A stretch of 64,000 nt of DNA from an uncultured Verrucomicrobia subdivision 3 bacterium (GCA_903865745.1 CAIPKV010000078.1:12649-76648); one strand, 5' to 3'; positions 21,355-44,645 are shown, numbered from the stretch's first letter. Notes: a model not told the origin generated them from the sequence alone. Numbers and translations are program-made.

Positions 21355-21655
21355 CGCACCAGAAAATCATCCCCTCGTACGAGTAGATCATCTGCTCGCA
21401 CCAAATTATCATTTTCTCGTACGGTTGAAGCATTCTGCCATACGGCTGGGTGTTCCAACCGTATGGCTGGCTCGTCCAACCATACGGCTGACTCGTCCAA
21501 CCGTACGGCTGGCTCGTCCAACCGTACGGCTGGAACCTCCAGCCGTATGGCTGAAGACTCCAGCCGCACCAGTAAATCATTTATTGGTGCGGATAAATCG
21601 TCCAGCCGTACCAGTAAACCTTCCAGCCGTACGGTTTTTAGTCAAAAGCGCGTCC
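21355..21655. repeat. 21-bp-period palindromic array A (14 units) with terminal motif
   Basis: Units start at 21355+21n with no indels; consensus core CCAGCCGTACGGCTGG; ends in GTTTTTAGTCAAAAGCGCGTCC. Confidence 0.9.
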
Positions 21656-21745
21656 GAAGTGGCAAAAACCATCTCTTTTGCCGACGCCACCCCGACAAGT
21701 GTGTAAAAAGAGACACCTAGCGTCAGGTTGTCCCGTTGGGAGGAT

Positions 21746-21821
21746 GGTAGGGCGCGCAGTCCCTTGCGCGCCGGGGCGTGGGTTGCCACCGGACGGCGCG
21801 CATGGAGTGACGCGCCCTACC
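21746..21821. repeat. REP doublet (REPIN-like), GTAG type
   Basis: GGTAGGGCGCGCAGTCCCTTGCGCGCCG ... CGGCGCGCATGGAGTGACGCGCCCTACC, inverted pair. Confidence 0.8.
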
Positions 21822-21909
21822 GGTTGCCCGCCTCCGGATACCCGCTATTGGCCAGCACGCAGCGCTTTCTGCTTTGGCTTTGGGACGTGTCCCATTATCT
21901 TGCGCGGCT

Positions 21910-22923
21910 ATGTTTGTCCGTTTCACCCTGCTGTTGCTCGCGCTCGCGCTGTCTGCGCCCGCCAGTCACGCGGCTTTCATCAGGGGCCACAGCTATGTGC
22001 CGCTCGCCGAGTGGGCGGATGATAATAACTTCCGCATCGTCGCGCACTACGGCGATGAAATCACCCTGACCAACCGCTCGGCGCGGCTGGTCTTCGCCAA
22101 GGATTCGCATACGGCCCAGATCAATGGCGTGAACGTGGCGCTGTCGTTCCCGGTGTCGGCGGATAAGGGTCAGTTCGCCATCGCCCAAATGGATTTGACC
22201 CGCACCATCGAGCCGCTCATCTATCCGCCCAAGTTTGCGGGCCGGAAGCTTACCACCATCGTGCTCGACCCCGGTCACGGCGGGAAGGACCCGGGCAACC
22301 GCGTGGCCGGGCGCAGCGAAAAGAACGCGACGCTGGCGCTGGCCAATGCGGTGCGCGACCAATTGGTGGACGCGGGCTTCCGGGTCATCTTCACGCGCAA
22401 GTCGGATAAGTTCGTGGAACTGCCGGTGCGACCGGACATCGCCAACCGCGCGCGCGCGGACCTCTTCGTGAGCCTGCACTTCAATGCGACCACGTCGGGC
22501 AAGGCGGAAGTGAGCGGGCCGGAGACGTATTGCATCACGCCGGTGGGCGCGGCGTCGTCCAATGCGCAAGGCGAAGGCGCGAACTACGGCGCGACCACGG
22601 CGAACCTCTCGGAGAAGCCGAGCCTGCTGCTGGCGTATTCCGTGCAGCGCGCGCTGGTGAAGAATCTGGGCGTGGAGGATCGCAGTGTGCGGCGCGCGCG
22701 CTTCGCGGTGTTGCGCGATGCGGAGATGCCCGCCATCCTGATCGAGAGCGGTTACATGACGCATCCGGTGGAGGGCCGGAAGATTTTCGACGCGGCCTAC
22801 CAGCGGCAACTGGCGGCGGCCATCGTGAAGGGGATCATGAATTATCAAAGGCTGACCGCGCCGGCGGAGGCGCCCTTTACGAACAGCACGCCGACCAGCA
22901 TTCACAAACGAAAGAAATCATGA
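21910..22923 (+). CDS. N-acetylmuramoyl-L-alanine amidase (Amidase_3)
   Basis: Signal peptide; IVLDPGHGGKDPG, FVSLHFN and AILIESGY motifs. Confidence 0.92.
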   Translation: MFVRFTLLLLALALSAPASHAAFIRGHSYVPLAEWADDNNFRIVAHYGDEITLTNRSARLVFAKDSHTAQINGVNVALSFPVSADKGQFAIAQMDLTRTIEPLIYPPKFAGRKLTTIVLDPGHGGKDPGNRVAGRSEKNATLALANAVRDQLVDAGFRVIFTRKSDKFVELPVRPDIANRARADLFVSLHFNATTSGKAEVSGPETYCITPVGAASSNAQGEGANYGATTANLSEKPSLLLAYSVQRALVKNLGVEDRSVRRARFAVLRDAEMPAILIESGYMTHPVEGRKIFDAAYQRQLAAAIVKGIMNYQRLTAPAEAPFTNSTPTSIHKRKKS

Positions 22924-23456
22924 GCATTGCAACCAAGACGGGGGATAACGGCACGACGGCACTGATGTATAACCGCCGCGTAGCAAAGAACCATGTGCGC
23001 GTGGAGGCTTACGGCACGGTGGATGAATTGAACACCGCGCTCGGGCTCGCCCGCGCCACGGCGGAACATGATTTTGTGCGCACGAACCTCTTGCCCATCC
23101 AGAAGGATTTGATCGTGCTGATGGGCGAACTCTGCGTGCAGCCGGAAGATTTGAACCGCTACGTCGCCGACGGTTTTCTGCTCGTGACGGCGGACATGAC
23201 GGCGAAGCTCGATGTGCTCGTGAAGGAAATCGAGGCGCAGAATGTCAGCTTTAAAGGTTGGGCGACGCCGGGTAATACCATGAACTCCGCCGCGCTGGAT
23301 GTGGCACGCACGGTTTGCCGTCGCGCGGAACGCCGCGTGTGCGATTTGAAGTTCACCGGCGAAATGCGGAACGCGGAAATCATCCTGTATCTCAACCGGC
23401 TGTCGGATTTGCTCTGGCTCTTCGCGCGCTGGGTGGAGACGCAGGTGAAGGCGTAA
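22920..23456 (+). CDS. PduO-type ATP:cob(I)alamin adenosyltransferase
   Basis: MSIATKTGDNGTT, AYGTVDELN, RTVCRRAER and YLNRLSDLL motifs; ATG at 22920 overlaps the amidase stop. Confidence 0.92.
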   Translation: MSIATKTGDNGTTALMYNRRVAKNHVRVEAYGTVDELNTALGLARATAEHDFVRTNLLPIQKDLIVLMGELCVQPEDLNRYVADGFLLVTADMTAKLDVLVKEIEAQNVSFKGWATPGNTMNSAALDVARTVCRRAERRVCDLKFTGEMRNAEIILYLNRLSDLLWLFARWVETQVKA

Positions 23457-23558
23457 GCGCGCAACTCCGCACTTTTCAAACGCGGAACTTCTGACTATGC
23501 TTCCGTTTCCGTTTTGAGCTTTCGGGAAGCCTTGTCGGCACGGCTCGAGGAATTTTGT

Positions 23559-43209: not shown

Positions 43210-43279
43210 ACTCGAAGAAAACAGCGTGGCAGCAGATAAAATGAAGTCAAGTCTCGCAGGCGCAGGTCAAACCGATTAC

Positions 43280-43357
43280 CGGTGGGGCGAGCGTCCTCGC
43301 GAGCCGACGTGGTCTGTCAACGGGTGGCAGCGGCTCGCGGGGACGCTCGCCCCACCG
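43280..43357. repeat. REP doublet (REPIN-like), GTGG variant
   Basis: CGGTGGGGCGAGCGTCCTCGCGAGCCG ... CGGCTCGCGGGGACGCTCGCCCCACCG, near-perfect inverted pair. Confidence 0.85.
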
Positions 43358-43365
43358 ACAAAAAA

Positions 43366-44145
43366 TCATTTCGGTAGATCAAACTCCAGCCGCGTACGCG
43401 AGCCGGTCTGGACATTGCGGATTTCCATCTCCTGCAATTCCCACTGGCCGTTGACCTTCTTAAACGATTTCGGCGCGAACTCCTTGAGCAACTGGCCGCG
43501 CGCATCGTAAGCCTCGGCCTGGACGATGCCGCCGCTGTCCTCATCGATCCACGACACCACGCGCGAATAGTCGGGAAGATTGGGAAACGCATTGGGATTC
43601 GGATTGGTGCTTTCAAGGACTTGGCAGGCGCAATTGCGGCGGAATTCCTTTTTCAAGACCTTCTGCGCCGGCCAATGAAAAAACTCGAGCCCTAAATCCA
43701 TCGCCCAAAAATCTCCGGCAAAATGCAACTTGTCCACAACTTCGGATCTTTTCAGGATATGCGGCAGGTGATTGGTCGAAACAAGCGTCATCTCATACTG
43801 ATTGGAACCCGAACCATCATGTACAACCACGAGCTTTTCAAAAGCCACTTTATTTGTGAGCAGCGTTTTTTGATAAACACTAGTCCAATTGGTTGGCGTC
43901 ACGATGATTTCAAACTTCATTGGAATTTCTGAGCGTATTCCATTCTCATCGCGGATTTTTAATGTTCCAGTCAGCGTTGAATTGGTCGCCGGACGTTGTT
44001 CTAAAAACCGCTGCGCCAGTTTGCGCCCTTCAATTTCCGAGTCAGACAAGCCGTTCGTCGTCTGCGCCTTCGCGCCTAAGGCCAAAAACAGCACCAATCC
44101 AGCCATTAAACCGGTGGCGGGGCGGAATATCGTCCAGAACTTCAT
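43366..44145 (-). CDS. Outer-membrane lipoprotein-sorting (LolA-like) protein
   Basis: Signal peptide; FAGDFWAMDL, YSRVVSWID and FKKVNGQW motifs. Confidence 0.75.
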   Translation of the reverse strand: MKFWTIFRPATGLMAGLVLFLALGAKAQTTNGLSDSEIEGRKLAQRFLEQRPATNSTLTGTLKIRDENGIRSEIPMKFEIIVTPTNWTSVYQKTLLTNKVAFEKLVVVHDGSGSNQYEMTLVSTNHLPHILKRSEVVDKLHFAGDFWAMDLGLEFFHWPAQKVLKKEFRRNCACQVLESTNPNPNAFPNLPDYSRVVSWIDEDSGGIVQAEAYDARGQLLKEFAPKSFKKVNGQWELQEMEIRNVQTGSRTRLEFDLPK

Positions 44146-44255
44146 CCGGCAACGCTAGGACGTCCGCCCATGCCTGTCCAGTAGGGATTCTGCAAAACGC
44201 CGCCGACGCCGGTTCGCCCCCCGCCAAGTCCAAAACCGGCTCAAAAACCTCAAAA

Positions 44256-44645
44256 GGAGGCGATTTTGACTAAAAACGACGCTTTTCGACCAAAAACGCC
44301 TCGTCACCAGCGGTAGATGCACGTGCATCTGCGTCATTTGGAGATGCAAATGCCGCAGGTGATGCATCACTTGCCGTAGTTGCATGTGCAAATGCGGCAC
44401 TTGCACACGCAAATACGCCATCTGCACACGCAAGTACGTCATCTGCACGTGCAAATGGCGCATTTGCACGTTGGAATGGCTTAGTTGAAGCTCCAACTAC
44501 GGCATTTGCACATGCAAATGCCCTAGATGCACGTGCAACTGCCGCGTTTGTACATGCAAATGAGGCAGGTTGAGCGCCGTTTACCTCGGCTGCACGCTCA
44601 GCTGACGCCGATGAAACGTCACCCGAACTGGCTTGGAAGGCAGAT
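44256..44645. repeat. 21-bp-period palindromic array C (~14-16 units) with terminal motif and phased A-tracts
   Basis: 16-bp palindromes at 44315+21n (AGATGCACGTGCATCT, ATTTGCACATGCAAAT, etc.); 44256-44277 is the reverse complement of the array A terminal motif (20/22). Confidence 0.9.

Follow-up and report, generated by a model that had tools for sequence, protein, structure and literature searches.

The stretch of DNA analysed here, referred to as the window, comprises 64,000 nucleotides (nt) from an uncultured Verrucomicrobia subdivision 3 bacterium (GCA_903865745.1 CAIPKV010000078.1:12649-76648, contig C78 of the assembly). Four tandem arrays, A to D, were detected in it with Tandem Repeats Finder (TRF), each with a period of 21 or a multiple of it, and two of them, A and C, are closed by a common terminal motif, which is the subject of this work. 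Array A is located between the genes of an ABC-F type ATPase and of an N-acetylmuramoyl-L-alanine amidase, and array C between the lon gene, coding for the Lon protease, and a LolA-like gene (Table 1). The inner units of array A are of the type tacggctggNNNNNtccaaccg, with outer units of an "aaatcat" type on both sides, and the unit of array C is a dyad such as CATTTGCA-CG-TGCAAATG plus CCG. Array A was also considered as a protein-coding sequence and rejected as such, as no open reading frame (ORF) spans 21358-21655.

Table 1. Features of the loci of arrays A and C, in window coordinates. R1 is a sequence-only Infernal model built from the tail alignment.
Feature	Position	Strand	Basis or remark
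ABC-F type ATPase gene, upstream of array A	19432..21333	+	ORF; Pfam ABC_tran x2, ABC_tran_CTD
Array A body, ~13 units of 21 nt	21358..21633	+	phased reading; TRF 21441-21566, period 21
A 22-mer, GTTTTTAGTCAAAAGCGCGTCC	21634..21655	+	first tail unit; body-unit layout, arms swapped for GGTTTT / AAAAGC
Tail A, 48 nt	21634..21681	+	tail alignment; nhmmer E = 6.2e-5; R1 E = 5.3e-6
Box TGTGTAAAAAGAGACACC	21700..21717	+	4 genome copies; putatively promoter-like
76-bp palindromic REP-like element (REP, repetitive extragenic palindrome), outside the array module	21746..21821		numerous copies in relatives throughout the order
N-acetylmuramoyl-L-alanine amidase gene, beyond tail A	21874..22923	+	Pfam Amidase_3, E = 6.3e-49
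Lon protease gene, upstream of array C	44695..47106	-	Pfam Lon_C, LON_substr_bdg, AAA
Array C body, 12 units of 21 nt	44311..44562	-	TRF 44335-44562; pair counts
Tail C, 48 nt (degenerate copy and 22-mer inside)	44250..44297	-	tail alignment; nhmmer E = 1.2e-4; R1 E = 2.9e-6
Degenerate copy, GTTTTTGGTCGAAAAGCG	44280..44297	-	
C 22-mer, GTTTTTAGTCAAAATCGCCTCC	44256..44277	-	
Terminator-like hairpin GGCGTTTTTGGTCGAAAAGCGTC, then the T-run of the 22-mer	44278..44300	-	consensus scan; no counterpart at A
Promoter-like TGGACA-N17-TAGCGT	44152..44180	-	by eye, putative; ends 6 nt before the next ATG
LolA-like gene, beyond tail C	43366..44145	-	Pfam LolA_like, E = 2.4e-15

The original prediction, made from the sequence alone, stated that the same 22-bp motif lies 3' of arrays A and C, that a degenerate second copy accompanies array C and that arrays B and D lack the motif. 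All of this was confirmed. The two 22-mers are found at the coordinates predicted, each 3' of its array, and are identical at 20/22 positions; that of A follows the array body immediately and in its 21-nt phase, and the degenerate copy lies between array C and its 22-mer. No copy of the 22-mer was found at arrays B and D by motif search, and a profile of the longer tail described below matches A and C alone on the window's contig. The A 22-mer was used as the query for a scan of the whole 3.63-Mb assembly (87 contigs) on both strands, in total 7,253,002 positions, of which 1069 agree at 14/22 letters, 164 at 15, 33 at 16 and 4 at 17; none agrees at 18 or 19, one agrees at 20 (locus C) and one at 22 (the query itself). 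In a BLAST comparison of ~290 array flanks the A/C pair of 22-mers has E = 0.003. The match between A and C is not due to chance.

The 22-mer is one unit of a longer tail of ~48 nt, made up of two or three degenerate units, each of 21 nt, that continue the phase of the array. These units are built like those of the body, two complementary arms and a spacer adding up to 21 nt, with arms of T5 and A4-5. In the phased reading of array A the inner units are tacgg-ctgg-ctcgt-ccaa-ccg and the terminal unit is tacgg-tttt-tagtc-aaaa-gcg, and the 22-mer is therefore a unit of the body type; the tail unit t3 (CAAAA...TTTTG) likewise pairs in the body register. Ends with units of T-runs and A-runs are also present at five other arrays of this genome (contigs C29, C71, C8, C32 and C31) and at A-like arrays of relatives (G012:C251, G018:C8 and G012:C91, where G numbers denote genomes of the same genus). 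Nine tails align gap-free over 48 columns with the consensus GTTTTTnGTCAAAAACnnnCCnTTTTTGCCAAAAACCnCnCTTTTT and a mean column identity of 70%. The invariant columns other than A/T are G28 and C30, and the loop letters AGTC are common to the tails. In the consensus, T-runs occupy columns 2-6, 23-27 and 42-46 and A-runs columns 11-15 and 31-35.

A profile of this alignment (nhmmer) was run against the genome, and all 15 of its 15 matches at E < 1 sit at nine array loci, with the array 5' of the best-strand match at 9/9; seven of these nine loci are training sequences and two, on C70 and C83, are new. The best match away from an array has E = 3. The tail is thus carried by ~9 of the ~200 array loci of the genome, and the bodies preceding it belong to at least four unrelated unit classes. 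The same alignment, as model R1, was searched against 60 other genomes of the genus with stricter filters. Matches were obtained in eight of the 60, including nine new ones (from six further genomes and one training genome), of which seven lie within ~100 nt of a TRF period-21 array, the array being 5' in six cases and 3' in one (locus L076). Of the remaining two, L073 adjoins 21-phased A-like units visible by eye, with no TRF row, and L075 is ambiguous. A-like units precede four of the new matches (two in G065, one each in G039 and G033), and A-like arrays with a diverged tail are found in G018 and G012 (two loci). A relaxed 13-mer form of the motif gives the same picture in this genome, with 3.2 matches per 10 kb in the non-coding flanks of arrays vs 0.18-0.28 elsewhere in non-coding DNA (11-18 times denser); its reversed control shows no enrichment in array flanks (0.36 vs 0.36). 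A family of tails therefore exists that sits only at array ends and is kept between species, while the bodies turn over.

The literal motif performs less evenly. The expectation that its occurrences would be preceded by period-21 arrays holds within this genome, where 10/34 matches at ≤3 mismatches (seven loci) lie within 150 bp of an array vs ~0.7 expected, and fails in 121 genomes of the genus, where matches at ≤2 mismatches are about as frequent as those of the reversed control and just 4/30 of the matches fetched adjoin an array, in mixed orientation. Among the matches listed for these 121 genomes, an exact 18-mer is found in this genome only. The 48-nt tail is a usable marker; the 18-mer alone is too short and too palindromic.

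The conservation of the tail was measured at a pair of orthologous A-like arrays in two relatives (G018:C8 and G012:C91), located between a divergent gene for an extracytoplasmic function (ECF) sigma factor and a gene of the FN3-type group described below. The two tails agree at 41/48 positions, and the last three units plus tail at 101/112, vs 142/230 with a 21-nt gap in the array core; in the flanks, agreement is 99/107 upstream and 65/120 from the tail to the start codon.

The loci of arrays A and C differ from their orthologues in relatives. At the ABC-F locus a period-21 array is present in 0/7 of the orthologous loci. The ABC-F and amidase genes (window 19432-22923) are adjacent here and lie on separate contigs in the relatives where both were found, and array A is therefore at a break in gene order. 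At the lon locus the LolA-like gene mostly starts within a few bases of the lon stop codon or overlaps it in 12 relatives' loci; a spacer is found only in this genome, where it measures 549 bp (window 44146-44694; loci L013-L025 compared), and in G006, where it measures 324 bp. By lon identity (87%) G006 is among the closest relatives. In the orthologous position its spacer contains a weak match to the tail (11.7 bits, E = 0.015 in 40.6 kb) and no period-21 body (no TRF row of at least 25; lag-21 identity 0.28 vs 0.46 here). At C, then, the tail-like stretch either predates the body or is independent of it. The lon and LolA-like genes appear to be a co-transcribed pair split by inserted DNA, which would have brought its own promoter-like site; the sequence TGGACA-N17-TAGCGT is kept in G006 and was not called by a sigma-70 scan.

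A second family of loci in this genome (G000), resembling MITEs (miniature inverted-repeat transposable elements), shows the same behaviour of bodies and borders. Its members (C13:32072-32421, C16:150-386 and C4:1393-1611, on the one hand, and C29:10060-10341 and C3:373-673, on the other) have flanks that are 96-100% identical over 30-190 bp, enclosing period-21/42 bodies of two kinds that share no likeness beyond 8-mers; bodies of the same kind are 94-95% identical. Near-identical flanks around unrelated bodies indicate that bodies are replaced much faster than borders. The units of one body kind resemble a palindrome in the conserved flank (CATCCATGGTTAAGGATATG).

Variation between strains was found at array D: a single contig from a divergent strain (run X5, depth 5.5) is shorter there by exactly 21 bp, the missing stretch being at 50080. 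Arrays B and C are unchanged in bridging contigs of the lake runs X2-X4; as these runs belong to a single study, perhaps that of the source sample itself, the agreement carries little weight. At positions 50055 and 50163 of array D, contigs from three runs, all of one study, cease to follow the reference and have their loose ends in common, an indication that the array exists in alternative forms or has a look-alike elsewhere.

The tailed arrays are part of a much larger population. On the whole genome TRF gave 1115 rows, of which 290 have period 21, 132 period 42, 63 period 63 and 26 period 84, vs 7 and 13 rows at the neighbouring periods 20 and 22. When merged, the period-21 arrays form 195 loci with a total of 32.8 kb, ~0.9% of the genome, and with periods 20 and 22 added there are 207 loci, 138 of them of at least 100 bp. 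Across about 200 arrays the period stays at exactly 21 bp, or two helical turns, while unit sequences are unrelated from one locus to the next. Stems of at least 6 are present in 26/121 unit consensus sequences vs 3.6 expected from shuffles, an enrichment that leaves most units without one, and palindromic units as a universal feature were rejected on this count. An 8-mer enrichment analysis found no universal flank motif.

In array C the pairing within units is pronounced: 83.3% of the 84 cells of its 7-pair intra-unit dyad are complementary vs 71.2 ± 2.9% in shuffles (0/500 reach the observed value), slid registers give 24-48%, and changes on both sides have occurred at 5/7 pairs; as the units are related by duplication, this statistic overstates their independence. 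Genome-wide, 5925 Watson-Crick cells were counted vs 5536 expected (ratio 1.07; slid controls 0.97-1.02), in a register picked to maximise pairing, and so small an effect gives weak general support; it is clear only in array C. G-T and A-C stem mismatches, compared as an indicator of the transcribed strand, number 190 vs 235 (chi-square 45.9, 21 degrees of freedom, units not independent) and reveal no clear strand, only a modest overdispersion. No RNA sample was listed as containing window 40500-50400.

The placement of arrays was assessed with a crude gene call of our own (2679 genes, 84.6% coding). Of the 138 longer arrays, 55 lie between tandem, 27 between divergent and 20 between convergent genes; 15 are at contig ends and 21 inside small, probably spurious ORFs. 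This mixed placement means that the arrays as a class are tied neither to gene starts nor to gene ends. A more regular association concerns a group of FN3-type genes, coding for proteins of ~205-240 residues that form three BLAST clusters (fam1, fam2 and fam5) with no firm Pfam match: 34/38 have an array ≤700 bp upstream and none has one downstream. A Protein Atlas look-up of one FN3-type protein returned only Verrucomicrobiota clusters. About 160 of the 200 arrays in this genome have no FN3-type link, and no FN3-type gene is near A or C.

Beyond the tail, a gene start follows at 5/9 loci of this genome: those of the amidase (A), the LolA-like protein (C), enolase (C32) and FN3-type proteins (C8 and C71). 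In relatives, 5/12 tail loci have a same-strand FN3-type gene 46-265 nt after the tail, 6/12 have none within 1500 nt and one runs off its contig. The module thus stands directly before a small FN3-type gene at 2/9 loci here and 5/12 in relatives. Inspection by eye for sigma-54 or sigma-70 promoters beyond the tails, including TGGCAC-N5-TTGC, yielded nothing consistent, no formal sigma-54 scan having been run, and Pfam searches of the neighbours found no activator gene adjacent to A or C. With Rfam 15 at the gathering score, the only match in the whole window is a tRNA at 16898-16971; over arrays A and C there are sub-threshold hairpin matches only.

The explanation that we favour, with about an even chance of being correct, combines a tail shared by descent, a fast turnover of the bodies and a role of the tail as a hinge at the DNA level, the hinge being the part that we infer. 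Arrays A and C would share their tail through descent from one module of array plus tail. The bodies would be overwritten rapidly by amplification of new unit variants, which the tail would escape, so that the ends stay alike while the bodies become unrelated. Speaking for descent are the A-like arrays of G018 and G012, the A-like units before the new tails and the FN3-type gene that follows. A/T tracts phased at about 10.5 bp bend DNA. The tail would act at the DNA level: its five A/T tracts, which succeed one another at intervals of about one helical turn, may give a fixed bend, or a hinge that opens easily, at the junction of the phased array with the DNA beyond, and the array would be a platform with all its units turned to one side of the helix. 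Such a phased hinge is probably what the tail represents. Under this explanation the tail is not a transposase, priming or RNA-processing site.

Several observations speak against it. Apart from the 22-mer, the flanks of A and C show no other similarity in the BLAST comparison of flanks, the remainder of their tails aligns only loosely, and conversion of a single unit could also have produced the likeness between them. In the stricter genus search just the eight of 60 genomes named above have tail matches. End units of arrays are no more divergent from the consensus of their array than inner ones (0.73 vs 0.71, within the limits of TRF), and the data do not support a general retention of old units at array edges; the idea rests on individual loci. 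For a role at gene starts, the genes beyond the tails (amidase, LolA-like, enolase, FN3-type) are mutually unrelated, at 4/9 loci it is the end of a convergent gene that lies there, and a sigma-70 scan found no promoter beyond tails A and C.

Other explanations account for parts of these data. The tail could be the old, non-functional edge of paralogous arrays in which slippage or unequal exchange rewrites the interior only. The tail units share the 21-nt dyad build and phase of the body, the MITE-like family likewise combines near-identical flanks with unrelated bodies, G006 has tail-like units and no body at its lon locus, and tails precede unrelated genes as well as gene ends, all as this explanation would have it. 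The general population of arrays, however, shows no gradient of unit divergence from edge to centre, and between G018 and G012 the tail is 85-90% identical vs 54% just beyond, which suggests constraint, although REP insertions inflate the second of these figures; on balance we consider a passive edge unlikely, if still a serious candidate. A transcription stop or insulator, in which arrays are transcribed, either within the 3' untranslated region of the upstream gene or as RNAs of their own, and hairpins of T5/A5 with T-runs end the transcript ahead of the next promoter, possibly in both directions, is more doubtful. It would fit locus C, whose first tail unit forms a hairpin of 9 pairs with the GTTTTT of the 22-mer directly after it, and whose tail folds somewhat better than shuffles (z = -1.94; 6/200 fold as well). 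It would also fit the location of A and C 3' of a same-strand gene, the 4/9 tails facing the end of a convergent gene and the similarity of the tail on both strands, to which the profile matches alike. Yet A has no terminator-like site and its tail folds in an ordinary way (z = -0.96 and +0.29), the G018/G012 array lies between divergent genes and so no gene reads into it, the mismatch comparison gave no clear strand (190 vs 235), and no Rfam family matched.

The original prediction had read the fixed end and variable repeat body as one element family with a recognition, priming or processing site. Its first half stands, given the tail profile and the at least four unit classes; its second half is not supported, as the tail consists of in-phase dyad units of the body type, the tail-like stretch of G006 has no body, and the co-occurring enzyme genes that it proposed to look for (HUH/Y1 transposase, reverse transcriptase, recombinase) are not found near A or C. 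Genome-wide there are two Y1 transposase genes (on C16 and C57), 12 matches to integrases and none to reverse transcriptases, and contig C78, to which the window belongs, carries none of these. As a broader possibility, period-21 arrays might still be built or carried by a mobile or self-extending element, with the tail as its end for recognition, priming or processing. The restriction of the tail to array ends with near-constant polarity, the several copies of the module in non-syntenic places between genomes, the location of array A where ABC-F and amidase genes are joined only here and of array C in a spacer that most relatives lack, and the maintenance of the dyad through changes on both sides, also expected from a copying mechanism, are compatible with this. 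We judge it distinctly unlikely, because the opposite ends of the arrays were not seen to carry the tail in either inverted or direct form, nor was a target duplication observed, the G006 stretch without a body means that body and tail did not arrive together at C, and with ~9/200 arrays carrying it the tail is not needed for making arrays in general. Somewhat less credible again is the idea that some process extends hairpin-capable 21-nt units outward from the tail as a fixed A/T-rich seed, by a dedicated enzyme with a two-turn ruler or by hairpin-driven template switching. A self-extending DNA element would then have the tail for its seed or recognition site, and its products would be the arrays that precede FN3-type and housekeeping genes. 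Should the tail prove to be a seed or recognition site, this would point to a new means of repeat generation in bacteria. Chance, or convergence of A/T-rich intergenic composition, would account for the 18-mer at ≤2 mismatches being about as common as its reversed control in the 121 genomes, and for window shuffles reaching at least two matches at ≤3 mismatches in 7/100 cases, a weak test, as both real matches have 0 mismatches. It is very improbable in view of the absence, among 7.25 million positions, of any match between 17/22 and 20/22, the common loop letters and G/C positions, and the location at array ends only.

Among known systems, the closest is BrickBuilt of Porphyromonas gingivalis, a minisatellite-bearing MITE that, in the passages of the report that describe it, has a spacer-less array of 23-nt units, a conserved leader and tail, terminal inverted repeats, 19 copies and promoter activity (PMC4596501). 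As described there, it resembles the present elements in being intergenic and multi-copy, with short spacer-less tandem units (23 nt there, 21 here) whose number varies between strains; the tailed arrays are likewise intergenic and present at 9 loci here and 12 in relatives, and array D has lost 21 bp in one strain. Conserved flanks that may carry promoters are a further feature of BrickBuilt. According to the same description, all its copies share one repeat sequence and both its ends carry inverted repeats shared with an insertion sequence, whereas here the bodies are unrelated, with at least four unit classes, and one end is conserved, the 48-nt tail, which is itself repeat-like; the heads of A and C and of their relatives showed no inverted tail copy. 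The numbers also differ, with 19 copies there vs ~200 arrays here, ~9 of them with a tail.

The BOX elements of Streptococcus pneumoniae consist of boxA, boxB repeated n times and boxC. They too are modular and intergenic, their end modules being conserved and their central units varying in number, but boxB is conserved, the period is different and both ends are conserved. The iteron origins of theta plasmids such as R6K, RK2 and pPS10 contain direct repeats about two helical turns apart next to an A+T-rich region, which recalls the period-21 repeats adjoining a tail of A/T tracts. In contrast to iterons, no initiator (Rep) gene is adjacent here, the neighbours being ABC-F, amidase, Lon and LolA-like genes; there are ~200 loci in 3.6 Mb rather than one or few per replicon, and the units differ within and between arrays. 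Nothing suggests a replication role for the arrays. Intrinsic (Rho-independent) terminators share with locus C the hairpin followed by a T-run, but A lacks this arrangement, the stems are mostly A/T, and the tail is a 48-nt sequence family and not a mere shape.

REP sequences and bacterial interspersed mosaic elements (BIMEs), mobilised with REP-associated tyrosine transposases (RAYTs, of the Y1 type), differ from the arrays in that units are unrelated between arrays here and neither of the two Y1_Tnp genes is near A or C. The separate 76-bp element between tail A and the amidase gene (GTAGGGCGCGCAGTCCC...GGAGTGACGCGCCCTAC), which has matches in relatives across the order, fits this family better than the arrays do. 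An FN3-type gene with an array of its own upstream (C16:16706-17368) has, ~230 bp downstream, one of the Y1 genes, which is of the IS200/RAYT type (C16:16134-16472, minus strand).

The literature search found no description of period-21 arrays of this kind in Verrucomicrobia or in bacterial intergenic DNA. In lake Planctomycetota, intergenic tandem repeats are hot spots of structural variation, and the passages of that report describing them give no periods (PMC9426551). The tail, its location at array ends, its conservation and the tail-only state of G006 are new here. The tail is the first sequence-conserved handle on these arrays and defines a sub-family that can be traced, and it shows that bodies are replaced much faster than borders. 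It is also a short piece of DNA that can be tested in bending, binding and reporter assays, and could reveal a reader of the arrays.

Some smaller features accompany the arrays. The box past tail A belongs to a motif TGT(A/G)TAAAAAGAG(A/C)CACC with four copies in the genome (window 21700-21717, and C18:38967, C26:20452 and C87:14602), all 65-100 nt past an array end and on the same strand, and relatives have a similar box, GGTCAAAAAGAGACAG, after the tails of their A-like arrays. The tail-proximal units of A-like arrays (window 21568-21633, G018:C8 and G012:C91, loci L009/L010), which contain ..AATAAATCATTTGA.. and ..CGGATAATTCATCC.., are ~90% conserved between species and look, by eye, like Fur-box-like A/T dyads. 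Single near-matches resembling DnaA boxes and Fur boxes can likewise be picked out by eye in the outer units of array A. The genome also contains heptanucleotide repeats such as ATTTACG and AGTTTTG, with 111 TRF rows of period 7 (mean 33 bp) and 66 of period 14, a class that almost never overlaps the period-21 arrays.

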